Shown one piece after another: positions 4,000 through 48,863 of a stretch of DNA of 64,000 nt. Under the pieces are notes generated by a model, which searched no databases, was not told the origin of the DNA, and saw only the letters and a list, made by a program, of their open reading frames with translations. A program made the position numbers and the translations under genes. The DNA comes from Escherichia coli (GTDB lineage: Bacteria > Pseudomonadota > Gammaproteobacteria > Enterobacterales > Enterobacteriaceae): assembly GCF_030013595.1 (NCBI RefSeq), contig NZ_CP122768.1. One strand, 5' to 3'. Every line of letters starts with the position of its first letter. The first letter of the stretch is position 1.

Positions 4000-5063
4000 T
4001 GTACGTTGCCGTGAAAGGGGGCGAGAAGGCGATCGACGCCGCCCACGCCCTGCAAGAGAGCCAACGCCGGGGCGATACCGATTTGCCCGAACTGAGCGTC
4101 GCCCAGATTGAACAACAGCTTAACCTCGCGGTAGATCGCGTGATGACTGAAGGCGGCATTGCCGACCGCGAACTGGCGGCGCTGGCGCTGAAACAGGCCA
4201 GCGGCGATAACGTCGAAGCAATTTTCCTGCTGCGCGCCTACCGTACCACGCTGGCTAAGCTTGCGGTAAGCGAGCCGCTCGACACCACGGAGATGCGTCT
4301 CGAACGGCGTATTTCAGCGGTTTATAAAGATATTCCCGGCGGCCAGCTGCTTGGCCCAACCTACGACTACACCCATCGCCTGCTCGATTTCACCCTGCTG
4401 GCAAACGGCGAAGCGCCGACGCTGACCACCGCCGACAGCGCACAACAGCCGTCGCCGCACGTTTTCAGCCTGCTGGCGCGTCAGGGGCTGGCGAAGTTTG
4501 AGGAGGATAGCGGCGCACAGCCGGATGACATCACCCGCACGCCGCCGGTTTACCCCTGCTCACGCTCCTCCCGCCTGCAACAATTAATGCGCGGGGACGA
4601 AGGCTATTTGCTGGCGCTGGCCTACTCCACCCAGCGTGGTTACGGACGCAATCACCCGTTCGCGGGCGAGATCCGCAGCGGATATATCGACGTGTCGATT
4701 GTGCCGGAAGAGCTGGGATTTGCGGTGAACGTCGGCGAACTGCTGATGACCGAATGTGAAATGGTCAACGGTTTTATCGACCCGCCGGATGAGCCGCCGC
4801 ACTTCACGCGCGGCTACGGGCTGGTGTTCGGCATGAGCGAGCGCAAAGCGATGGCGATGGCGCTGGTTGACCGTGCGTTGCAGGCTCCGGAGTACGGCGA
4901 GCACGCGACAGGCCCGGCGCAGGATGAAGAGTTCGTGCTGGCGCATGCCGACAACGTCGAAGCCGCAGGCTTTGTCTCGCACCTTAAACTCCCGCACTAC
5001 GTCGATTTCCAGGCCGAACTGGAGCTACTCAAACGTCTGCAACAGGAGCTGAACCATGGCTAA
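3999..5063 (+). CDS. phnI: C-P lyase core complex subunit PhnI
   Basis: 354 aa from [10 protein letters not shown]; ATG at 3999-4001 overlaps the phnH stop; ORF track extends upstream to 3879 in the same frame. Confidence 0.9.
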   Translation: MYVAVKGGEKAIDAAHALQESQRRGDTDLPELSVAQIEQQLNLAVDRVMTEGGIADRELAALALKQASGDNVEAIFLLRAYRTTLAKLAVSEPLDTTEMRLERRISAVYKDIPGGQLLGPTYDYTHRLLDFTLLANGEAPTLTTADSAQQPSPHVFSLLARQGLAKFEEDSGAQPDDITRTPPVYPCSRSSRLQQLMRGDEGYLLALAYSTQRGYGRNHPFAGEIRSGYIDVSIVPEELGFAVNVGELLMTECEMVNGFIDPPDEPPHFTRGYGLVFGMSERKAMAMALVDRALQAPEYGEHATGPAQDEEFVLAHADNVEAAGFVSHLKLPHYVDFQAELELLKRLQQELNHG

Positions 5064-7447: not shown

Positions 7448-8580
7448 TTATCAATAACGTCAAACTGGTGCTGGAAAACGAGGTGGTACACGGTTCTCTG
7501 GAGATGCAGGACGGCGAAATCCGCGCCTTTGCCGAAAGCCAGAGTCACCTGTCAGAAGCAATGGACGGCGAAGGCGGCTGGCTGCTACCGGGGCTGATTG
7601 AGCTGCATACCGATAATCTGGATAAATTCTTCACCCCGCGTCCAAAAGTGGACTGGCCCGCCCACTCGGCAATGAGTAGCCACGACGCGCTGATGGTGGC
7701 GAGCGGCATCACCACCGTGCTGGACGCGGTGGCGATTGGCGACGTGCGCGACGGCGGCGATCGGCTGGAGAATCTGGAGAAGATGATCAACGCCATCGAA
7801 GAGACGCAGAAACGCGGCGTCAACCGCGCCGAGCACCGTCTGCATCTGCGCTGCGAACTGCCGCATCACACCACGCTGCCGCTGTTTGAAAAACTGGTGC
7901 AGCGCGAACCGGTGACGCTGGTGTCGCTGATGGATCACTCGCCGGGCCAGCGCCAGTTCGCCAATCGCGAGAAGTATCGCGAATATTATCAGGGCAAATA
8001 CTCGCTCACCGATGTGCAGATGCAGCAGTACGAAGAGGAACAGCTGGCGCTTGCCGCACGCTGGTCACAGCCTAATCGCGAAACTATCGCCGCAATGTGC
8101 CGCGCGCGACACATTGCGCTCGCCAGCCACGATGACGCCACGCACGCGCACGTTGCCGAATCTCACCAGCTTGGCAGCGTGATCGCCGAATTTCCCACCA
8201 CGTTCGAAGCGGCAGAAGCCTCGCGCAAGCATGGCATGAACGTGCTGATGGGCGCGCCGAATATCGTGCGCGGCGGTTCGCACTCCGGCAACGTGGCGGC
8301 CAGTGAACTGGCGCAGCTTGGCCTGCTGGATATCCTCTCTTCCGACTACTACCCCGCCAGCCTGCTCGATGCGGCATTTCGCGTCGCCGATGACGAGAGC
8401 AACCGCTTTACGCTGCCGCAGGCGGTGAAGCTGGTGACTAAAAATCCGGCGCAGGCGCTTAATCTTCAGGATCGCGGAGTGATTGGCGAGGGCAAACGCG
8501 CCGACCTGGTGCTGGCGCATCGCAAGGGCAACCACATTCATATCGACCACGTCTGGCGTCAGGGTAAAAGGGTGTTCTGA
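7444..8580 (+). CDS. phnM: Amidohydrolase-family PhnM (ribosyl-triphosphate phosphonate diphosphohydrolase)
   Basis: 378 aa ORF overlapping phnL by 4 nt; synteny. Confidence 0.9.
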
Positions 8581-9559: not shown

Positions 9560-10318
9560 ATGAGCCTGACCCTCACACTTACTGGCACTGGCGGCGCACA
9601 GGGCGTTCCCGCATGGGGCTGTGAGTGCGTGGCCTGCGTCAGAGCGCGGCGCTCACCGCAGTATCGCCGCCAGCCATGCAGCGGCGTCGTGAAGTTTAAC
9701 GACGCGATCACCCTGATCGACGCCGGGCTGCACGATCTCGCCGATCGCTGGTCGCCCGGATCGTTCCAGCAGTTTTTGCTGACGCACTACCATATGGATC
9801 ACGTGCAGGGGCTGTTTCCGCTGCGCTGGGGCGTGGGCGATTCGATCCCGATCTACGGCCCGCCGGATGAACAGGGCTGCGACGATCTGTTTAAACATCC
9901 GGGCCAGCTTGATTTCAGCCACACGATGGAACCGTTTGTGGTGTTTGATTTACAGGGGTTACAGGTCACGCCCCTGCCGCTCAACCACTCAAAACTGACC
10001 TTCGGTTATCTGCTGGAAACGGCACATAGCCGGGTGGCGTGGCTGTCTGACACCGCAGGCCTACCGGAAAAAACGCTGAAATTTTTACGCAATAATCAAC
10101 CGCAGGTGATGGTGATTGATTGCAGCCACCCACCGCGCGAGGATGCACCGCGTAATCACTGTGATTTAAATACCGTGCTTGCGCTGAATGAAGTTATCCG
10201 CTCGCCGCGCGTGGTTCTGACCCATATCAGCCATCAGTTTGATGCGTGGCTGATGGAGAACTTACTGCCGTCAGGGTTTGAGGCGGGGTTTGATGGGATG
10301 GAGATTGGGGTGGCGTGA
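9560..10318 (+). CDS. phnP: Metallo-beta-lactamase-fold phosphodiesterase PhnP
   Basis: 252 aa from [12 protein letters not shown]; HYHMDH metal-binding motif; ATG 2 nt after the phnO stop. Confidence 0.9.
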
Positions 10319-10345
10319 GGGAAAATACCCGCGCCGGCCCCTATA

Positions 10346-10675
10346 TCAACGCCCATACTCATCTTCCATTCTCCGCTCTTCATCCTCCAGTTGCCGACGC
10401 TCCTGATCAAGCTGGCGCTGGCGATCGTCCAGCTGCCTGCGGCGATCTTCAAACTGACGGCGGCGGTCGTCATATTGTCTGCGCCGATCGTCGCTCACTT
10501 CACGCTGCCAGCCGTCGTCGTGCGAATCTTCATAGTCTCGCCCACGGTCAGGGTTATAAGCATCGTTAATCGCCTGCTGAATATTGCCAATGGTGTCGTC
10601 GATAATATCGGCCTGGGCCGGAACGGTAGACAGCGTGAGCAGGGTGAATAAAAGAAATAGCGGAAAGCGTTTCAT
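10346..10675 (-). CDS. yjdP: Small secreted low-complexity protein YjdP
   Basis: 109 aa ORF; signal peptide followed by Arg/Asp/Gln/Glu-rich repeats (DDRRRQ...). Confidence 0.8.
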   Translation of the reverse strand: MKRFPLFLLFTLLTLSTVPAQADIIDDTIGNIQQAINDAYNPDRGRDYEDSHDDGWQREVSDDRRRQYDDRRRQFEDRRRQLDDRQRQLDQERRQLEDEERRMEDEYGR

Positions 10676-10743
10676 TAGCCAACCTCAAAAAGAAACTCTA
10701 TCCACATTAGTCATTACTCATCCATGCAAGTAGTGGACGAATC

Positions 10744-11061
10744 TCAATTTCTCCGCTGCTCTATTGCCGTAATCGCCTCCACGCGTTGTTGATGACGACC
10801 GCCTTCGTACTGCGCGCCCAGCCACGCATCCACAATCATTTTTGCCAGTTCGAGGCCAACCACTCGTGAACCAAAAGCCAGTGCAACTTCACTGGCGTAA
10901 TGCGGATAATCAGTGCGCTCTGACGGCCTGGTTTCTTTATCAATCCCCTCACTCATTGACCATGAATAAAAGGCTGGCACAGCAACGCGGAATCCTGCGG
11001 TGCCAGCGACATGACCGCCCATTGCTCCGGTACGTTTTTTAATAAAAAACACCGGTTGCAT
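10744..11061 (-). pseudogene. rpiB: Ribose-5-phosphate isomerase B remnant: RpiB-like N- and C-terminal segments with the central catalytic region missing
   Basis: 105 aa ORF with SERTDYPHYAS motif and RpiB/LacAB-like C-terminus but about 45 residues shorter than RpiB; residues upstream of the motif are in a foreign frame. Confidence 0.6.
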
Positions 11062-11313
11062 TGATTAATTGTGCTCAGTATTTGCCGAAGTACAATATAT
11101 ATAATAAATATATAAAACACCTCATATTATTTACAGAAATAATGAATTCGCGTAATTTTCCCTCTTCAGCACAAATGCCTAATAAAATGGCGCGTTCAGC
11201 TCACACTTCTACTTATTAAAGTCGCAATTTCCCAATTATGATAACGCCAGCTTCAAATGACGTATTTTGCATGGGTTACATATTTACGACATAAATGATA
11301 AATGGAGATTTAT

Positions 11314-13299
11314 ATGAATAACTCTCGGTTATTCCGTTTGAGCAGGATTGTTATTGCGTTAACTGCCGCCAGCAGCATGATGGTAAATACCGCTAATGCG
11401 AAAGAGGAAGCGAAAGCCGCCACTCAATATACCCAACAGGTTAATCAGAATTACGCCAAATCATTACCGTTTAGCGATCGTCAGGATTTTGACGATGCCC
11501 AGCGTGGATTTATCGCCCCGCTGCTGGATGAAGGTATTCTGCGTGATGCTAACGGCAAAGTTTACTACCGCGCAGACGATTACAAATTTGATATTAATGC
11601 CGCTGCGCCGGAAACCGTAAACCCCAGCCTGTGGCGTCAGTCGCAAATCAACGGTATTTCTGGCCTGTTCAAAGTCACCGATAAAATGTATCAGGTGCGC
11701 GGCCAGGATATCTCTAACATTACGTTCGTTGAGGGCGAGAAAGGCATTATTGTTATCGACCCGCTGGTGACGCCGCCTGCCGCAAAAGCCGCACTTGATC
11801 TTTACTTCCAGCATCGTCCGCAAAAACCGATTGTTGCTGTTATTTACACCCACAGCCACGCCGACCATTATGGCGGTGTGAAAGGCATTATCTCTGAAGC
11901 GGATGTTAAATCCGGCAAAGTGCAGGTGATCGCTCCGGCAGGCTTTATGGACGAAGCCATCAGCGAAAACGTGCTGGCGGGTAACATCATGAGCCGCCGT
12001 GCGCTCTACTCTTACGGTCTGTTACTGCCGCACAACGCGCAAGGCAACGTGGGCAACGGCCTGGGCGTGACGCTGGCAACCGGCGACCCGAGCATTATTG
12101 CACCGACTAAAACTATCGTCAGAACTGGCGAGAAGATGATTATCGACGGCCTGGAATTTGACTTCCTGATGACTCCGGGTAGCGAAGCGCCAGCCGAAAT
12201 GCACTTCTATATTCCGGCCCTGAAAGCCCTGTGTACCGCCGAGAACGCCACGCATACCCTGCACAACTTCTACACTCTGCGCGGCGCGAAAACCCGCGAT
12301 ACCAGCAAGTGGACCGAGTACCTGAACGAAACGCTGGATATGTGGGGTAACGACGCGGAAGTACTGTTTATGCCGCACACCTGGCCGGTCTGGGGCAATA
12401 AGCATATCAATGATTATATTGGTAAATATCGCGATACCATCAAGTACATTCACGACCAGACCCTGCACCTGGCGAACCAGGGCTACACCATGAATGAAAT
12501 CGGCGACATGATTAAGCTGCCGCCTGCGCTTGCCAATAACTGGGCCAGCCGCGGCTATTACGGTTCTGTCAGCCACAACGCCCGCGCGGTGTATAACTTC
12601 TATCTTGGCTATTACGACGGTAACCCGGCTAACCTGCATCCGTATGGTCAGGTGGAGATGGGTAAACGTTACGTGCAGGCGCTGGGCGGTTCTGCCCGTG
12701 TCATCAACCTGGCGCAAGAAGCGAACAAGCAAGGTGATTACCGCTGGTCGGCAGAACTGCTGAAACAGGTGATTGCCGCCAACCCTGGTGACCAGGTCGC
12801 GAAGAATCTGCAAGCGAATAACTTTGAACAGCTGGGCTATCAGGCCGAGTCCGCCACCTGGCGCGGTTTCTACCTGACCGGCGCGAAAGAGCTGCGCGAA
12901 GGGGTACATAAGTTCAGCCACAGCTCCACCGGTTCCCCGGACACCCTTCGCGGGATGTCGGTCGAAATGCTATTCGACTTTATGGCCGTTCGCCTCGATA
13001 GCGCGAAAGCCGCAGGTAAGAATATCAGCCTGAACTTCAATATGAGCAACGGCGATAACCTCAACCTGACGCTGAACGATAGCGTGCTTAACTACCGTAA
13101 AACGCTGCAACCTGAAGCCAACGCCTCTTTCTACATCAGCCGTGAAGATCTTCACGCCGTGCTGACCGGACAAGCCAAAATGGCGGATCTGGTAAAAGCG
13201 AAGAAAGCCAAAATTATTGGCAATGGCGCGAAACTGGAAGAAATTATTGCCTGTCTGGATAATTTCGATTTGTGGGTGAATATCGTAACCCCAAATTAA
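11314..13299 (+). CDS. yjcS: Putative alkyl/aryl-sulfatase (metallo-beta-lactamase fold, SdsA1-like), secreted
   Basis: 661 aa from MNNSRLF; signal peptide; [10 protein letters not shown] metal-binding motif; ORF track alternative start at 11302. Confidence 0.85.
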
Positions 13300-13801: not shown

Positions 13802-14833
13802 ATGGAAAGTACGCCGAAAAAAGCTCCTCGCAGTAAATTCCCTGCTCTGTTAGTGGTTGCGTTGGCGCTGGTTGCCCTTGTTTTCGTTATCTGGCGCGTA
13901 GACAGTGCGCCATCAACTAATGACGCTTACGCGTCAGCAGATACCATTGATGTGGTGCCGGAAGTCAGCGGTCGCATTGTAGAACTGGCGGTCACCGACA
14001 ACCAGGCGGTGAAACAGGGCGATTTGCTGTTCCGCATCGACCCGCGCCCGTACGAAGCCAATCTGGCGAAAGCCGAAGCCTCCCTCGCGGCGCTGGATAA
14101 GCAAATTATGCTCACCCAGCGTAGCGTTGACGCACAACAGTTTGGTGCCGACTCGGTTAATGCCACGGTAGAAAAAGCCCGTGCCGCTGCAAAACAGGCC
14201 AGCGATACATTACGCCGCACCGAGCCATTACTGAAAGAAGGTTTTGTCTCAGCGGAAGACGTTGACCGTGCAAGAACGGCGCAGCGCGCCGCAGAAGCCG
14301 ATCTTAACGCCGTTTTATTACAGGCGCAGTCAGCCGCCAGCGCCGTCAGCGGCGTGGATGCATTAGTTGCCCAGCGTGCGGCAGTGGAAGCGGATATTGC
14401 GTTGACCAAACTGCATCTGGAAATGGCGACCGTTCGCGCGCCGTTTGATGGCCGGGTCATTTCCCTCAAAACCTCCGTCGGGCAATTTGCTTCTGCCATG
14501 CGCCCTATTTTTACCCTAATCGACACTCGTCACTGGTACGTGATCGCCAACTTCCGCGAAACCGATCTGAAAAATATTCGCTCAGGTACACCCGCAACGA
14601 TTCGCCTGATGAGCGACAGCGGCAAAACCTTCGAGGGTAAAGTGGATTCGATTGGCTACGGCGTGCTACCGGATGACGGCGGCCTGGTGCTGGGCGGCCT
14701 GCCGAAAGTGTCTCGTTCTATTAACTGGGTCCGCGTTGCCCAGCGTTTTCCGGTCAAAATCATGGTCGATAAACCTGACCCGGAAATGTTCCGCATCGGC
14801 GCTTCGGCAGTCGCTAATCTTGAGCCGCAATAA
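13802..14833 (+). CDS. mdtN: HlyD-family membrane fusion (periplasmic adaptor) protein MdtN
   Basis: 343 aa ORF; N-terminal membrane anchor and coiled-coil region; synteny. Confidence 0.88.
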   Translation: MESTPKKAPRSKFPALLVVALALVALVFVIWRVDSAPSTNDAYASADTIDVVPEVSGRIVELAVTDNQAVKQGDLLFRIDPRPYEANLAKAEASLAALDKQIMLTQRSVDAQQFGADSVNATVEKARAAAKQASDTLRRTEPLLKEGFVSAEDVDRARTAQRAAEADLNAVLLQAQSAASAVSGVDALVAQRAAVEADIALTKLHLEMATVRAPFDGRVISLKTSVGQFASAMRPIFTLIDTRHWYVIANFRETDLKNIRSGTPATIRLMSDSGKTFEGKVDSIGYGVLPDDGGLVLGGLPKVSRSINWVRVAQRFPVKIMVDKPDPEMFRIGASAVANLEPQ

Positions 14834-16884
14834 TGAGCGCGCTCAACTCCCTGCCATTACCGGTGGTCAGGCTGCTGGCGTTCTTTCATGAAGAGTTAAG
14901 CGAGCGGCGACCAGGCCGCGTGCCGCAGACCGTGCAACTCTGGGTAGGCTGCCTGCTGGTGATTCTGATCTCGATGACTTTTGAGATCCCTTTTGTGGCG
15001 TTATCACTGGCAGTGCTGTTTTACGGTATTCAGTCGAACGCGTTTTACACCAAATTTGTCGCGATCTTGTTTGTGGTCGCCACGATGCTGGAGATCGGCA
15101 GCCTGTTTTTGATCTACAAATGGTCATACGGCGAACCGTTGATCCGATTGATCATCGCCGGGCCGATCCTGATGGGCTGCATGTTTTTGATGCGCACCCA
15201 TCGGCTGGGACTGGTCTTTTTCGCTGTCGCCATTGTCGCCATTTACGGGCAAACCTTCCCCGCCATGCTCGACTATCCGGAAGTGGTCGTGCGCTTAACC
15301 CTGTGGTGTATCGTTGTCGGCCTCTACCCGACGTTATTGATGACGTTAATCGGCGTGCTGTGGTTTCCCAGCCGCGCTATCACGCAGATGCATCAGGCGC
15401 TTAATGATCGGCTTGATGATGCCATTAGCCACCTGACGAACAGCCTCACACCGCTACCCGAAACGTGGATTGAAAGAGAGGCGCTGGCGCTGCAAAAACT
15501 CAATGTCTTTTGCCTCGCGGACGATGCCAACTGGCGAACTCAGAGCGCATGGTGGCAAAGCTGCGTGGCAACGGTAACCTACATTTACTCGACGCTGAAT
15601 CGCTACGCTCCCACCTCTTTTGCTGATTCTCAGGCAATTATTGAATTTCGGCAAAAATTAGCCTCAGAAATCAACAAACTGCAGCATGCCATTGCCGAAG
15701 GTCAGTGCTGGCAAAGCGACTGGCGGATCAGTGAAAGTGAAGCGATGGCGGCACGGGAATGTAACCTGGAGAATATCTGCCAGACGTTATTGCAACTGGG
15801 TCAGATGGACCCGAATACGCCGCCAACGCCCGCCACCAAACCGCCATCAATGGTCGCCGACGCTTTTACCAATCCAGACTATATGCGCTACGCGGTAAAA
15901 ACGCTGCTCGCCTGTTTGATCTGTTACACCTTCTACAGCGGCGTGGACTGGGAAGGCATTCACACCTGTATGCTGACCTGCGTGATCGTCGCTAACCCAA
16001 ATGTTGGTTCGTCGTATCAGAAAATGGCGCTGCGTTTTGGCGGTGCCTTCTGCGGTGCAATTCTGGCGCTGTTATTCACGTTACTGGTCATGCCCTGGCT
16101 GGACAATATTGTCGAATTGCTATTTGTGCTGGCACCGATTTTCCTGTTGGGCGCATGGATTGCCACCAGCTCTGAACGCTCTTCTTATATCGGCACACAG
16201 ATGGTGGTCACCTTCGCGCTCGCCACGCTCGAAAACGTTTTTGGCCCGGTGTACGACCTGGTGGAAATTCGCGATCGCGCCCTGGGTATCATCATTGGTA
16301 CCGTGGTGTCCGCGGTGATTTACACCTTTGTCTGGCCTGAAAGTGAAGCGCGCACACTGCCCCAAAAACTGGCTGGCGCGCTGGGTATGTTGAGTAAAGT
16401 AATGCGGATCCCACGCCAGCAGGAAGTCACAGCTCTGCGCACTTATTTGCAAATTCGTATAGGTCTGCATGCGGCGTTTAATGCCTGTGAAGAGATGTGC
16501 CAACGCGTGGCGTTGGAGCGTCAACTGGACAGCGAAGAACGCGCTTTACTGATTGAACGTTCGCAAACGGTTATTCGTCAGGGCCGCGATATTCTTCACG
16601 CCTGGGATGCAACCTGGAACTCGGCGCAGGCGCTGGATAACGCACTACAGCCGGACAGAGCAGGTCAGTTTGCCGACGCACTGGAGAAATACGCCGCCGG
16701 TCTGGCAACCGCACTCAGCCGTTCTCCTCAAATAACGCTTGAAGAAACACCCGCCTCGCAGGCCATCCTGCCCACCTTATTAAAACAGGAGCAACACGTC
16801 TGCCAGCTTTTCGCCCGCTTGCCAGACTGGACAGCCCCGGCATTAACGCCCGCCACGGAACAGGTACAAGGAGCCACGCAATGA
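14833..16884 (+). CDS. mdtO: FUSC-family inner-membrane efflux protein MdtO
   Basis: 683 aa ORF; TAATG overlap with mdtN; multiple transmembrane segments. Confidence 0.88.
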   Translation: MSALNSLPLPVVRLLAFFHEELSERRPGRVPQTVQLWVGCLLVILISMTFEIPFVALSLAVLFYGIQSNAFYTKFVAILFVVATMLEIGSLFLIYKWSYGEPLIRLIIAGPILMGCMFLMRTHRLGLVFFAVAIVAIYGQTFPAMLDYPEVVVRLTLWCIVVGLYPTLLMTLIGVLWFPSRAITQMHQALNDRLDDAISHLTNSLTPLPETWIEREALALQKLNVFCLADDANWRTQSAWWQSCVATVTYIYSTLNRYAPTSFADSQAIIEFRQKLASEINKLQHAIAEGQCWQSDWRISESEAMAARECNLENICQTLLQLGQMDPNTPPTPATKPPSMVADAFTNPDYMRYAVKTLLACLICYTFYSGVDWEGIHTCMLTCVIVANPNVGSSYQKMALRFGGAFCGAILALLFTLLVMPWLDNIVELLFVLAPIFLLGAWIATSSERSSYIGTQMVVTFALATLENVFGPVYDLVEIRDRALGIIIGTVVSAVIYTFVWPESEARTLPQKLAGALGMLSKVMRIPRQQEVTALRTYLQIRIGLHAAFNACEEMCQRVALERQLDSEERALLIERSQTVIRQGRDILHAWDATWNSAQALDNALQPDRAGQFADALEKYAAGLATALSRSPQITLEETPASQAILPTLLKQEQHVCQLFARLPDWTAPALTPATEQVQGATQ

Positions 16885-18347
16885 TCAATCGTCAACTTTC
16901 ACGCCTGCTGTTGTGCAGCATTCTCGGCAGCACGACGCTGATTTCCGGCTGTGCCCTGGTACGTAAGGATTCTGCGCCTCATCAACAGCTCAAACCGGAA
17001 CAAATCAAACTGGCCGATGATATTCATCTTGCCAGCTCCGGTTGGCCGCAGGCGCAGTGGTGGAAACAACTCAATGACCCGCAGTTGGATGCACTGGTCC
17101 AACAGACGCTAAGTGGTTCACACACCCTCGCCGAAGCGAAACTGCGGGAAGAAAAAGCGCAGTCGCAGGCCGATTTGTTAGATACCGGTTCACAGTTGCA
17201 GGTGGCAGCGTTAGGGATGCTTAACCGCCAACGCGTCTCGGCGAACGGCTTTTTAAGCCCTTATGCGATGGATGCGCCCGCACTGGGGATGGACGGGCCG
17301 TACTATACGGAAGCCACAGTCGGTTTGTTTGCCGGACTGGATCTTGATTTGTGGGGTGTGCATCGCTCAGCGGTTGCCGCCGCCATTGGCGCGCATAATG
17401 CCGCGCTGGCAGAAACCGCAGCAGTAGAGCTATCGCTGACCACGGGCGTAGCGCAGCTTTATTACAGTATGCAGGCCAGCTATCAGATGCTCGATCTGTT
17501 AGAACAAACTCGCGATGTGATTGATTACGCGGTAAAAGCGCACCAGAGTAAAGTGGCGCACGGTCTGGAAGCGCAAGTGCCTTTCCACGGCGCGCGGGCA
17601 CAGATTCTGGCGGTCGATAAACAAATTGCTGCCGTTAAAGGGCAAATCACCGAAACGCGAGAATCTCTGCGCGCATTGATTGGCGCGGGAGCCAGCGATA
17701 TGCCGGAGATCAAACCGGTGGCATTACCGCAAGTCCAGACCGGTATTCCGGCGACACTCTCTTATGAGTTGCTCGCCAGACGCCCGGATCTGCAAGCGAT
17801 GCGCTGGTATGTTCAGGCGTCATTAGATCAGGTGGATTCCGCGCGGGCGCTGTTCTATCCGAGCTTTGATATCAAAGCGTTTTTCGGCCTGGATTCTATC
17901 CACCTGGATACCTTATTCAAAAAAACCAGTCGCCAGTTTAACTTTATCCCGGGTCTGAAATTGCCGCTGTTTGACGGTGGACGGTTGAATGCCAATCTCG
18001 AAGGCACTCGCGCCGCCAGCAACATGATGATTGAACGTTACAACCAGTCAGTGCTGAATGCGGTGCGCGACGTTGCCGTCAACGGCACGCGTCTGCAAAC
18101 GCTCAACGACGAGCGAGAGATGCAGGCTGAACGCGTGGAAGCAACGCGCTTCACCCAGCGCGCTGCCGAGGCCGCCTATCAACGCGGCTTAACCAGCCGC
18201 TTACAGGCCACTGAAGCCCGGTTGCCAGTACTTGCCGAAGAGATGTCATTACTGATGCTGGACAGCCGCCGGGTGATCCAAAGCATTCAGTTGATGAAAT
18301 CGCTGGGCGGCGGGTATCAGGCGGCTCCCGTCGTCGAGAAAAAATAA
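16881..18347 (+). CDS. mdtP: Outer-membrane efflux lipoprotein (NodT/OMF family) MdtP
   Basis: 488 aa ORF; lipoprotein signal LISGCA; ATGA overlap with mdtO. Confidence 0.88.
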   Translation: MINRQLSRLLLCSILGSTTLISGCALVRKDSAPHQQLKPEQIKLADDIHLASSGWPQAQWWKQLNDPQLDALVQQTLSGSHTLAEAKLREEKAQSQADLLDTGSQLQVAALGMLNRQRVSANGFLSPYAMDAPALGMDGPYYTEATVGLFAGLDLDLWGVHRSAVAAAIGAHNAALAETAAVELSLTTGVAQLYYSMQASYQMLDLLEQTRDVIDYAVKAHQSKVAHGLEAQVPFHGARAQILAVDKQIAAVKGQITETRESLRALIGAGASDMPEIKPVALPQVQTGIPATLSYELLARRPDLQAMRWYVQASLDQVDSARALFYPSFDIKAFFGLDSIHLDTLFKKTSRQFNFIPGLKLPLFDGGRLNANLEGTRAASNMMIERYNQSVLNAVRDVAVNGTRLQTLNDEREMQAERVEATRFTQRAAEAAYQRGLTSRLQATEARLPVLAEEMSLLMLDSRRVIQSIQLMKSLGGGYQAAPVVEKK

Positions 18348-18477
18348 AATGTCTGCCGCGTGATGGCTGTCACGCGGTATTTCGTTTCGTCACGTCAAAA
18401 CTGACGACAGCCTGTTTTTCGTCAGAGTTTTGAATAAATAGTGCCCGTAATATCAGGGAATGACCCCAAATAAAATG

Positions 18478-18494
18478 TGGCATAAAAGATGCAT
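18478..18494 (+). promoter_or_regulatory. Sigma-54 (-24/-12) promoter of fdhF
   Basis: TGGCATaaaagaTGCAT matches the TGGCAC-N5-TTGCA class; inverted repeats of TGTCACG/CGTCA type lie 60-120 bp upstream (candidate FhlA activator site). Confidence 0.6.
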
Positions 18495-18544
18495 ACTGTA
18501 GTCGAGAGCGCGTATGCGTGATTTGATTAACTGGAGCGAGACCG

Positions 18545-20692
18545 ATGAAAAAAGTCGTCACGGTTTGCCCCTATTGCGCATCAGGTTGCAAAATCAACCT
18601 GGTCGTCGATAACGGCAAAATCGTCCGGGCGGAGGCAGCGCAGGGGAAAACCAACCAGGGTACCCTGTGTCTGAAGGGTTATTATGGCTGGGACTTCATT
18701 AACGATACCCAGATCCTGACCCCGCGCCTGAAAACCCCCATGATCCGTCGCCAGCGTGGCGGCAAACTCGAACCTGTTTCCTGGGATGAGGCACTGAATT
18801 ACGTTGCCGAGCGCCTGAGCGCCATCAAAGAGAAGTACGGTCCGGATGCCATCCAGACGACCGGCTCCTCGCGTGGTACGGGTAACGAAACCAACTATGT
18901 AATGCAAAAATTTGCGCGCGCCGTTATTGGTACCAATAACGTTGACTGCTGCGCTCGTGTCTGACACGGCCCATCGGTTGCAGGTCTGCACCAATCGGTC
19001 GGTAATGGCGCAATGAGCAATGCTATTAACGAAATTGATAATACCGATTTAGTGTTCGTTTTCGGGTACAACCCGGCGGATTCCCACCCAATCGTGGCGA
19101 ATCACGTAATTAACGCTAAACGTAACGGGGCGAAAATTATCGTCTGCGATCCGCGCAAAATTGAAACCGCGCGCATTGCGGACATGCACATTGCACTGAA
19201 AAACGGCTCAAACATCGCGCTGTTGAATGCGATGGGTCATGTCATTATTGAAGAAAACCTGTACGACAAAGCGTTCGTCGCTTCCCGTACAGAAGGCTTT
19301 GAAGAGTATCGTAAAATCGTTGAAGGCTACACGCCGGAGTCGGTTGAAGATATCACCGGCGTCAGCGCCAGTGAGATTCGTCAGGCGGCACGGATGTATG
19401 CCCAGGCGAAAAGCGCCGCCATCCTGTGGGGCATGGGTGTAACCCAGTTCTACCAGGGTGTGGAAACCGTGCGTTCTCTGACCAGCCTCGCGATGCTGAC
19501 TGGTAACCTCGGTAAGCCGCATGCGGGTGTAAACCCGGTTCGTGGTCAGAACAACGTGCAGGGTGCCTGCGATATGGGCGCGCTGCCGGATACGTATCCG
19601 GGCTATCAGTACGTGAAAGATCCGGCTAACCGCGAGAAATTCGCCAAAGCCTGGGGCGTGGAAAGCCTGCCAGCGCATACCGGCTATCGCATCAGCGAGC
19701 TGCCGCACCGCGCAGCGCATGGCGAAGTGCGTGCCGCGTACATTATGGGCGAAGATCCGCTGCAAACTGACGCGGAGCTGTCGGCAGTACGTAAAGCCTT
19801 CGAAGATCTGGAACTGGTCATCGTTCAGGACATCTTTATGACCAAAACCGCGTCGGCGGCGGATGTTATTTTACCGTCAACGTCGTGGGGCGAGCATGAA
19901 GGCGTGTTTACTGCGGCTGACCGTGGCTTCCAGCGTTTCTTCAAAGCGGTTGAACCGAAGTGGGATCTGAAAACGGACTGGCAAATCATCAGTGAAATCG
20001 CCACCCGTATGGGTTATCCGATGCACTACAACAACACCCAGGAGATCTGGGATGAGTTGCGTCATCTGTGCCCGGATTTCTACGGTGCGACTTACGAGAA
20101 AATGGGCGAACTGGGCTTCATTCAGTGGCCTTGCCGCGATACTTCAGATGCCGATCAGGGGACTTCTTATCTGTTTAAAGAGAAGTTTGATACCCCGAAC
20201 GGTCTGGCGCAGTTCTTCACCTGCGACTGGGTAGCGCCAATCGACAAACTCACCGACGAGTATCCGATGGTACTGTCAACGGTGCGTGAAGTTGGTCACT
20301 ACTCTTGCCGTTCGATGACCGGTAACTGTGCGGCACTGGCAGCGCTGGCTGATGAACCTGGCTACGCACAAATCAATACCGAAGACGCCAAACGTCTGGG
20401 TATTGAAGATGAGGCATTGGTTTGGGTGCACTCGCGTAAAGGCAAAATTATCACCCGTGCGCAGGTCAGCGATCGTCCGAACAAAGGGGCGATTTATATG
20501 ACCTACCAGTGGTGGATTGGTGCCTGTAACGAGCTGGTTACCGAAAACTTAAGCCCGATTACGAAAACGCCGGAATACAAATACTGCGCCGTGCGCGTCG
20601 AGCCGATCGCCGATCAGCGCGCCGCCGAGCAGTACGTGATTGACGAGTACAACAAGTTGAAAACTCGCCTGCGCGAAGCGGCACTGGCGTAA
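18545..20692 (+). CDS. fdhF: Formate dehydrogenase H, selenocysteine-containing molybdoenzyme; in-frame TGA at 18962-18964 read as Sec
   Basis: Track ORFs 18545..18964 and 19013..20692 are in the same frame, separated only by TGA after VDCCARV; 715 aa total; N-terminal Fe-S cysteine motif CPYCASGC. Confidence 0.93.
18962..19008 (+). promoter_or_regulatory. SECIS selenocysteine-insertion stem-loop immediately 3' of the fdhF UGA
   Basis: Position directly after the in-frame UGA; exact structure boundaries not folded here. Confidence 0.7.
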
Positions 20693-48359: not shown

Positions 48360-48863
48360 ATGAATATATCAAATGTGAATAGCAACAACACGACATCTTT
48401 ACCTGTAGAGCTAGATACACTAAATAACAAAGGTATCTCTTATGCCAAAGATTTCTCTTATGCCAAAGATCTCTTTTTATATATAGAAACACAGTTAAAA
48501 ATTGCAAAAGATTTTTGTAGACCAGGAGAGGAAGTATCAAGATCTATTGCAAATAAAGTTTTTCATGCATTTATTGATTTAGTTAACAAAATCAGAGGCA
48601 AGAAAGATTGTATGTATATTTGCACACTTTGCTGTTTTGCCGAGGAGGTTAAAGGTGATTATTCTCATTACAGAACCTTTTTATTTGATATTGGTAATCA
48701 ATATAAGGTTAAACTTACACAAAGCGGAAAAAAAGAGTTCTCTTTAACATTAGAATTTAACGATACTATAATTGAATCTCAGAAAGTCACAGGCAATAAG
48801 GCAAAGCATATTCTTGAGGATATAGAAATATTCTATCGTAACAAACCCGATACTTATTATTAA
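48360..48863 (+). CDS. AT-rich orphan protein of unknown function
   Basis: 167 aa from MNISNV with aaggag Shine-Dalgarno 8 nt upstream (track ORF starts at 48321); very AT-rich coding sequence; cysteine cluster CMYICTLCC; no recognisable family. Confidence 0.55.
   Translation: MNISNVNSNNTTSLPVELDTLNNKGISYAKDFSYAKDLFLYIETQLKIAKDFCRPGEEVSRSIANKVFHAFIDLVNKIRGKKDCMYICTLCCFAEEVKGDYSHYRTFLFDIGNQYKVKLTQSGKKEFSLTLEFNDTIIESQKVTGNKAKHILEDIEIFYRNKPDTYY

Follow-up and report, generated by a model that had tools for sequence, protein, structure and literature searches.

A probable deletion scar of the rpiB-als locus between yjdP and yjcS in Escherichia coli

The window analyzed here, a 64,000-nucleotide stretch of an Escherichia coli chromosome, carries the gene order phnC-P, yjdP, a remnant open reading frame (ORF), yjcS, ytcA, mdtNOP, and fdhF onwards. 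The interval between yjdP and yjcS (10676-11313) contains a single ORF of 105 amino acids on the minus strand (10744-11061), located 68 bp from yjdP on its upstream side and separated from the yjcS ATG (11314) by a 252-bp spacer with a GC content of 31%, compared with a window mean of 53%. The same interval in E. coli K-12 spans ∼6.7 kb and is occupied by rpiB, alsR, alsB, alsA, alsC, alsE, and alsK; none of the alsR or alsBACEK genes lies between yjdP and yjcS in the window. A preliminary description of this DNA had noted a 105-amino-acid ORF beside yjdP with an SERTDYPHYAS motif and the C terminus of RpiB but lacking its center, followed by an AT-rich spacer of ∼240 bp and then yjcS, and had remarked on the missing als and rpiR genes. 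Each of these observations at 10676-11313 was confirmed, that on the ORF by BLASTP against K-12 RpiB.

Two genomes matched parts of the window with 100% identity, namely the pig isolate HCP5S3_I2 (NZ_CM149870.1) across 14000-19000 and strain 2012C-4221 across 10300-11700. RefSeq feature coordinates in HCP5S3_I2, taken at the matching offset, coincided with the ORF coordinates of the window. An assembly artefact could be excluded because the same junction sequence was present in 1574 complete genomes. Elsewhere in the window, the gap between phnP and yjdP (10319-10345) was 27 bp, compared with ∼146 bp in K-12 (4480-4625 of the extracted K-12 locus), which carries an extra segment of roughly 110 to 120 bp. 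The gap between aphA and tyrB (48360-48722) contained a C-terminally truncated hypothetical-protein pseudogene, as annotated by RefSeq in the coordinate-matching genome.

A segment map of the interval was generated using BLASTN (word size 7) with the window against the K-12 region. Four segments were collinear between the two: 10311-10881 with 452-1022 of the K-12 region, 10872-10951 with 1172-1251, 10960-11011 with 7809-7860, and 11090-11700 with 7862-8473. The interval thus aligns in order with both ends of the intact locus and lacks what lies between them, as expected of a deletion-derived pseudogene. The features are as follows.

10311-10881: yjdP and the 3′-terminal 138 bp of rpiB; 96% identity to K-12 overall, with 1 difference in the 138 bp of rpiB.
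10346-10675, minus strand: yjdP, the intact left flank common to all alleles (ORF list; RefSeq coordinates identical in NZ_CM149870.1; 96% identity to K-12).
10744-11061, minus strand: chimeric ORF of 105 amino acids, annotated by RefSeq as an intact "RpiB/LacA/LacB family sugar-phosphate isomerase" (WP_064225838.1).
10744-10881, minus strand: rpiB 3′ fragment, RpiB residues ∼107 to 149 plus the stop codon (K-12 high-scoring segment pair [HSP]).
10872-10881: junction 1, where two K-12 HSPs overlap by 10 bp; the gap in the protein is 53 residues.
10882-10951, minus strand: rpiB middle fragment, RpiB residues ∼29 to 53, including SERTDYPHYAS (10872-10951 has 87.5% identity to K-12).
10952-11011, plus strand: alsK remnant, consisting of the last ∼4 codons, the TGA stop (10963-10965), and the downstream hairpin (stem, 10973-11007); HSP of 77% identity to the K-12 alsK end and 74% to that of a divergent Escherichia genome.
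11012-11058: 47 bp found only in the scar, absent from K-12 and from outgroup als loci.
11059-11093: 35-bp spacer common to the O157-type allele and absent from K-12-type als alleles (local alignment with the right-hand end of the O157 island); it holds the ATG of the ORF (11059-11061, minus strand).
11090-11700: yjcS upstream region plus yjcS; 96% identity to K-12 (HSP).
11094-11313, plus strand: native yjcS upstream region, present in all three alleles (96% identity to K-12, 94% to O157 strain PA8).
11314-13299, plus strand: yjcS (alkyl sulfatase), the intact right flank (ORF list, RefSeq annotation).

The preliminary description had proposed a nucleotide alignment with the K-12 region to find deletion endpoints, and this alignment located two deletions. 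At junction 1, 159 bp encoding RpiB residues 54 to 106 are missing in frame at 9/10-bp direct repeats (CAA[A/C]AGCCAG); in K-12, the repeats CAAAAGCCAG and CAACAGCCAG flank the missing 159 bp. This repeat arrangement makes junction 1 a slippage-type deletion. Junction 2 was placed between 10951 and 10952, since comparison with the alsK ends of the divergent Escherichia genome and Escherichia whittamii identified 10952-10965 as the last alsK codons plus the TGA. Here ∼6.56 kb is gone, from rpiB codon 28 to the last alsK codons, with microhomology of 2 bp or less. Overall, ∼6.7 kb is missing relative to K-12, comprising rpiB codons 1 to 28 and 54 to 106, the rpiB/alsR promoter region, alsR, alsB, alsA, alsC, alsE, and nearly all of alsK, and 208 bp of rpiB is left as the 70-bp middle and 138-bp 3′ fragments. 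The hairpin downstream of alsK folds at −21.4 kcal/mol in the scar versus −21.1 kcal/mol in K-12, with a T:A to C:G pair exchange in its stem.

The composition of the ORF follows this map. BLASTP aligned ORF residues 38 to 62 with K-12 RpiB residues 29 to 53 and ORF residues 63 to 105 with RpiB residues 107 to 149, with RpiB residues 54 to 106 missing. ORF residues 1 to 37 are read from 10952-11011, antisense to the 3′ end of alsK and its hairpin, and from the spacer at 11012-11061. The first ∼45 residues had previously been taken for rpiB in another frame; this was wrong in both length and source, and a search at word size 7 found zero nucleotide similarity between the DNA encoding the ORF N terminus and the 5′ 84 bp of rpiB. 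The resemblance of the ORF start (MQPV) to that of the O157 response regulator (MKPV) was also considered, but only 11 of 18 bases matched and the local alignment stopped short, so it was treated as chance. Within the 138 positions of the Pfam LacAB_rpiB model (PF02502), the ORF covers 102 to 138 (E value, 5e−9) with a weak match to 28 to 49. Its scores against the NCBIfam models TIGR01120 (rpiB; 77.2 bits) and TIGR00689 (subfamily model; 61.5 bits) are below the respective cut-offs of 138.65 (curated) and 88.3 bits. The ORF is thus neither full length nor at the curated cut-off for the RpiB family, and the possibility that it is a full-length functional RpiB homologue did not hold. With RpiB residues 54 to 106 deleted and residues 1 to 28 replaced by unrelated sequence, the ORF also lacks the RpiB catalytic core. 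The core of the E. coli enzyme, which we take to consist of Cys66, Thr68, His99, Asn100, Asp9, and His10, falls entirely within the missing residues.

The rpiB promoter region is deleted in the scar, and a consensus scan of 10600-11400 found no σ70-like promoter. Junction 1 has additionally placed the native rpiB hairpin GCCAGTGAAGTTGCACTGGC (10877-10896, minus strand) directly before TTTTGG, which gives the ORF an internal terminator-like site. Since nothing of the RpiB catalytic core is retained and the rpiB promoter region is lost, we conclude that the 105-amino-acid ORF is, as judged from its sequence, a pseudogene fragment that is probably not expressed, despite its annotation by RefSeq as intact. 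The Prokaryotic Genome Annotation Pipeline (PGAP) calls the remnant an intact CDS in most scar genomes, six of the loci compared, and a pseudogene only in the one with a stop codon.

Comparison among scar alleles gave a mixed picture of this ORF. The frame was open across 105 to 106 codons in five of the seven alleles sampled, and the uniform length of the ORF in most alleles, together with its annotation as intact, counts against the pseudogene reading. RefSeq flags one scar allele for an internal stop and another is N-terminally truncated. Across six alleles, eight nonsynonymous changes (one of them Trp to stop) and one in-frame codon insertion were found versus four synonymous changes; for so small a sample, this ratio is near the neutral expectation and would fit neutrality. 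The two rpiB fragments differed in their divergence. Over the 70-bp middle fragment, the scar departs from K-12 at 9 positions, whereas only 2 separate K-12 from E. whittamii; the 138-bp 3′ fragment has 1 difference from K-12 and 10 to 13 from other Escherichia species. These patterns suggest that the fragment between the two deletions may have drifted for a long time as a pseudogene, perhaps ever since the deep splits within E. coli, and that the flank up to junction 1 may have been homogenized by recombination with als-positive alleles. Alternatively, the 3′ end of rpiB could be under constraint, for instance through a yjdP promoter inside it. The near-identity of these 138 bp to functional rpiB could reflect such constraint and not recombination with als-positive alleles, and to that extent it counts against the pseudogene reading. 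A divergent als donor for the middle fragment was also sought, but none was clearly closer (K-12, E. whittamii, and the divergent Escherichia genome each differ from it at 7 to 9 of 70 bp); a long pseudogene branch is the simpler reading.

Between the alsK hairpin and the yjcS upstream region, 78 bp (11012-11089) is missing from K-12. The right part of the spacer (35 bp, 11059-11093) aligns with the spacer of the O157-type allele; its presence in these two alleles and absence from K-12-type and outgroup als alleles hints at shared history, or recombination, between two als-less alleles. The left part (47 bp, 11012-11058) occurs only in the scar and includes an AT-rich near-palindrome, CCGGTACGTTTTTTAATAAAAAACACCGG, at 11027-11055. 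No source for these 47 bp was found in K-12, in 16 outgroup als loci, or in the rest of the window, and they are not a repeat. Nor were they found in als-positive E. coli: among the matches listed, all 39 with full coverage lay at an annotated RpiB remnant, with a partial match in HH97. This segment is counted against an origin of the interval by deletion. The scar of E. coli HH97 (NZ_CP116409.1; 3730-4264 of the extracted locus) is itself a variant, with junction 1 unchanged, four additional bases at junction 2, and ∼75 bp of other sequence where the alsK hairpin and unique spacer otherwise stand; RefSeq annotates it as a partial pseudogene.

To describe the distribution of the scar, 5426 complete E. 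coli genomes were surveyed using a 144-bp probe that covers junction 2 together with the spacer. The probe matched 1574 genomes (∼29%), 1569 of them at ≥80% coverage and nearly all at ≥95% identity. The als operon was found in 3405 genomes and the O157-type island in 422. These counts sum to 5401 of 5426, so the three states essentially exclude one another. The O157-type allele carries a 9.3-kb cassette in the yjdP-yjcS interval, without rpiB and als, as seen in two loci including NZ_CP145946.1; its genes encode a hybrid sensor kinase, a sugar ABC transporter, a D-lyxose/D-mannose-family isomerase, an aldolase, a kinase, and a response regulator. In this allele, the gap from the kinase stop codon to yjdP is 68 bp, equal to the gap between rpiB and yjdP, and the sequence looks weakly homologous. 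Among the genomes outside these three states are IS-mediated rearrangements such as those of MB22 and AQ15. E. coli MB22 has an intact rpiB with an IS5-family element in place of alsR through ytcA, and E. coli AQ15 has ISVsa5 beside yjcS with a string of tiny gene fragments that looks engineered or misassembled; these are independent als losses through IS elements.

Both junctions and the unique spacer recur in all six standard scar alleles, which come from different hosts and pathotypes; this argues for a single origin. Junction 1 was identical in all seven alleles compared. A chimeric probe consisting of 5 kb of window sequence (mdtNOP) and 3.7 kb of K-12 sequence (rpiB-alsR-alsB-alsA) on the opposite strand was used to look for als DNA elsewhere. 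It matched one place only in HCP5S3_I2, LCP30S3_I5, and 2012C-4221 and two places in als-positive strains, indicating that als DNA is absent from the rest of the chromosomes of these nearest genomes. The search of the remaining genome that had been suggested earlier therefore found no als genes on the chromosomes of the closest relatives. Together with the missing RpiB residues and the scores below the family cut-offs, this supports the earlier proposal that the strain lacks the als genes and RpiB.

The direction of the change was addressed with outgroups. K-12 AlsK was searched against species-representative genomes, which returned 16 loci. The yjdP-rpiB pair lies upstream of als in E. whittamii, a divergent Escherichia labelled E. 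coli, Citrobacter amalonaticus, Citrobacter koseri, and Klebsiella grimontii, and yjcS directly follows alsK in E. whittamii, the divergent Escherichia, and K. grimontii. The outgroup arrangement is that expected if the intact state is ancestral: because outgroups carry als at the yjdP-rpiB locus, the als-bearing state is the ancestral one and the state in the window is a loss. The preliminary description had left open whether the genes were deleted here or acquired by K-12. Deletion is favored and acquisition by K-12 is rejected, given that both ends of the segment survive in order and orientation and that outgroups keep als.

Taken together, the region is very probably a deletion scar of the rpiB-als locus formed by two deletions, a single old event that left the 105-amino-acid ORF as a pseudogene. 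The ancestor would have had yjdP-rpiB-alsR-alsBACEK-yjcS in the K-12 arrangement. Slippage between the 9/10-bp direct repeats would have removed the 159 bp of rpiB in frame, and the larger deletion would have taken out ∼6.56 kb, reaching from codon 28 of rpiB as far as the last alsK codons. The leftovers (two rpiB fragments, 70 and 138 bp long, and the alsK stop with its hairpin) would read by chance as a chimeric ORF of 105 codons on the rpiB strand. The scar now segregates as one of three mutually exclusive E. coli alleles. A strain carrying it would be expected neither to take up nor to catabolize D-allose and to isomerize ribose 5-phosphate through RpiA alone.

Three other accounts of the interval were weighed against this one. 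That the window represents an ancestral empty site, with rpiB-als gained in K-12-type strains by horizontal insertion between yjdP and yjcS, seems highly improbable. The locus is clearly exchangeable, as the unrelated 9.3-kb sugar island of O157-type strains demonstrates, and the internal fragments of the scar (87.5% and 77%) are more diverged from K-12 than its flanks (96%). However, an empty site would not hold ordered and oriented fragments of rpiB and the alsK end with an internal deletion of 53 codons, and rpiB-als lies beside yjdP in five outgroup species, with yjcS directly after alsK in three. It is equally hard to credit that the scar arose several times at a deletion hotspot. The direct repeat at junction 1 could slip again, independent als losses mediated by IS are known from strains such as MB22 and AQ15, and the scar allele spans strains of different pathotypes and hosts, yet the six standard alleles do not differ at either junction or in the unique 47-bp insert, and nearly all 1574 junction-probe matches are at ≥95% identity. 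With microhomology of 2 bp or less at junction 2, recurrence at the same base is implausible, and the only differing scar, that of HH97 (1 of 5426 genomes), still has junction 1 in common with the others.

The remaining account, in which the chimeric ORF is an expressed new small protein combining RpiB helices with a novel N terminus and kept by selection, is quite unlikely, if a little less so than the two above. In its favor are the frame of 105 to 106 codons that stays open in five of the seven alleles sampled, the in-frame internal deletion, the CDS call by PGAP, and the strong conservation of the 3′ 138 bp. Set against these are the substitution pattern (eight nonsynonymous versus four synonymous changes, a nonsense allele, and an N-terminally divergent allele), which fits neutrality, the failure to find a promoter-like site within 10600-11400, and the hairpin followed by a T run within the ORF (10877-10896). 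Moreover, the fragments could not form an RpiB fold because the central region with the catalytic residues is missing. Somewhat less remote, though still doubtful, is the idea that the yjdP-yjcS interval is an old polymorphism kept by selection, comprising the als operon, the scar, and the O157-type cassette; the expressed small protein is a less likely variant than this. If such a polymorphism were real, the scar would date back at least to the deep splits within E. coli, with fixed scar-specific substitutions inside and flanks homogenized by recombination, and its frequency of 29% would stem not from drift but from an advantage, dependent on niche, of losing allose/ribose uptake or rpiB.

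Read as a deletion scar, the interval can be placed beside known systems. The rpiB-alsR-alsBACEK genes of K-12, the D-allose regulon, occupy the same site between yjdP and yjcS, and the rpiB and alsK remnants of the scar keep the K-12 order. This regulon was described by Kim et al. 1997, Poulsen et al. 1999, and Sorensen and Hove-Jensen 1996, as cited in PMC2808357 and PMC13192267. According to passages in the respective papers, als is absent from enteroaggregative E. coli (EAEC) 042 (PMC2808357) and from E. coli W (PMC3032704), and neither strain is able to use D-allose. The absence in these two strains, as given in those passages, would belong to the same species-wide presence/absence polymorphism seen here. 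Those passages speak of "complete absence" and do not describe an rpiB/alsK remnant or the two junctions. The O157:H7-type allele occupies the same interval and also lacks rpiB and als, sharing with the scar ∼35 bp of yjcS-proximal spacer that is absent in K-12; it differs in carrying a full alternative gene cassette where the window allele is a scar. Pan-Escherichia metabolic models predict allose use in only 34% of strains, with 66% predicted negative (PMC9393557), and a report on mastitis-associated strains mentions rpiB and alsB among accessory genes (PMC11390585). A search for literature tying allose use or alsK to phylogroup found none.

Both the loss of als and the accompanying allose-negative phenotype are already known, and as such the scar is ordinary and holds no new biology. 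Its structure would nonetheless explain, and predict, an allose-negative phenotype in the strains that carry it. In K-12, suppressors of rpiA mutants arise by derepression of rpiB, which follows from mutations in alsR/rpiR; this route is predicted to be impossible in ∼37% of E. coli genomes, those with the scar or the O157-type allele. More than 1500 RefSeq genomes carry the remnant as an "RpiB/LacA/LacB family sugar-phosphate isomerase" CDS, and this annotation probably inflates calls of rpiB presence in pan-genome and metabolic-model work. For work on recombination in E. coli, the yjdP-yjcS interval also offers a clean marker locus with three alleles.
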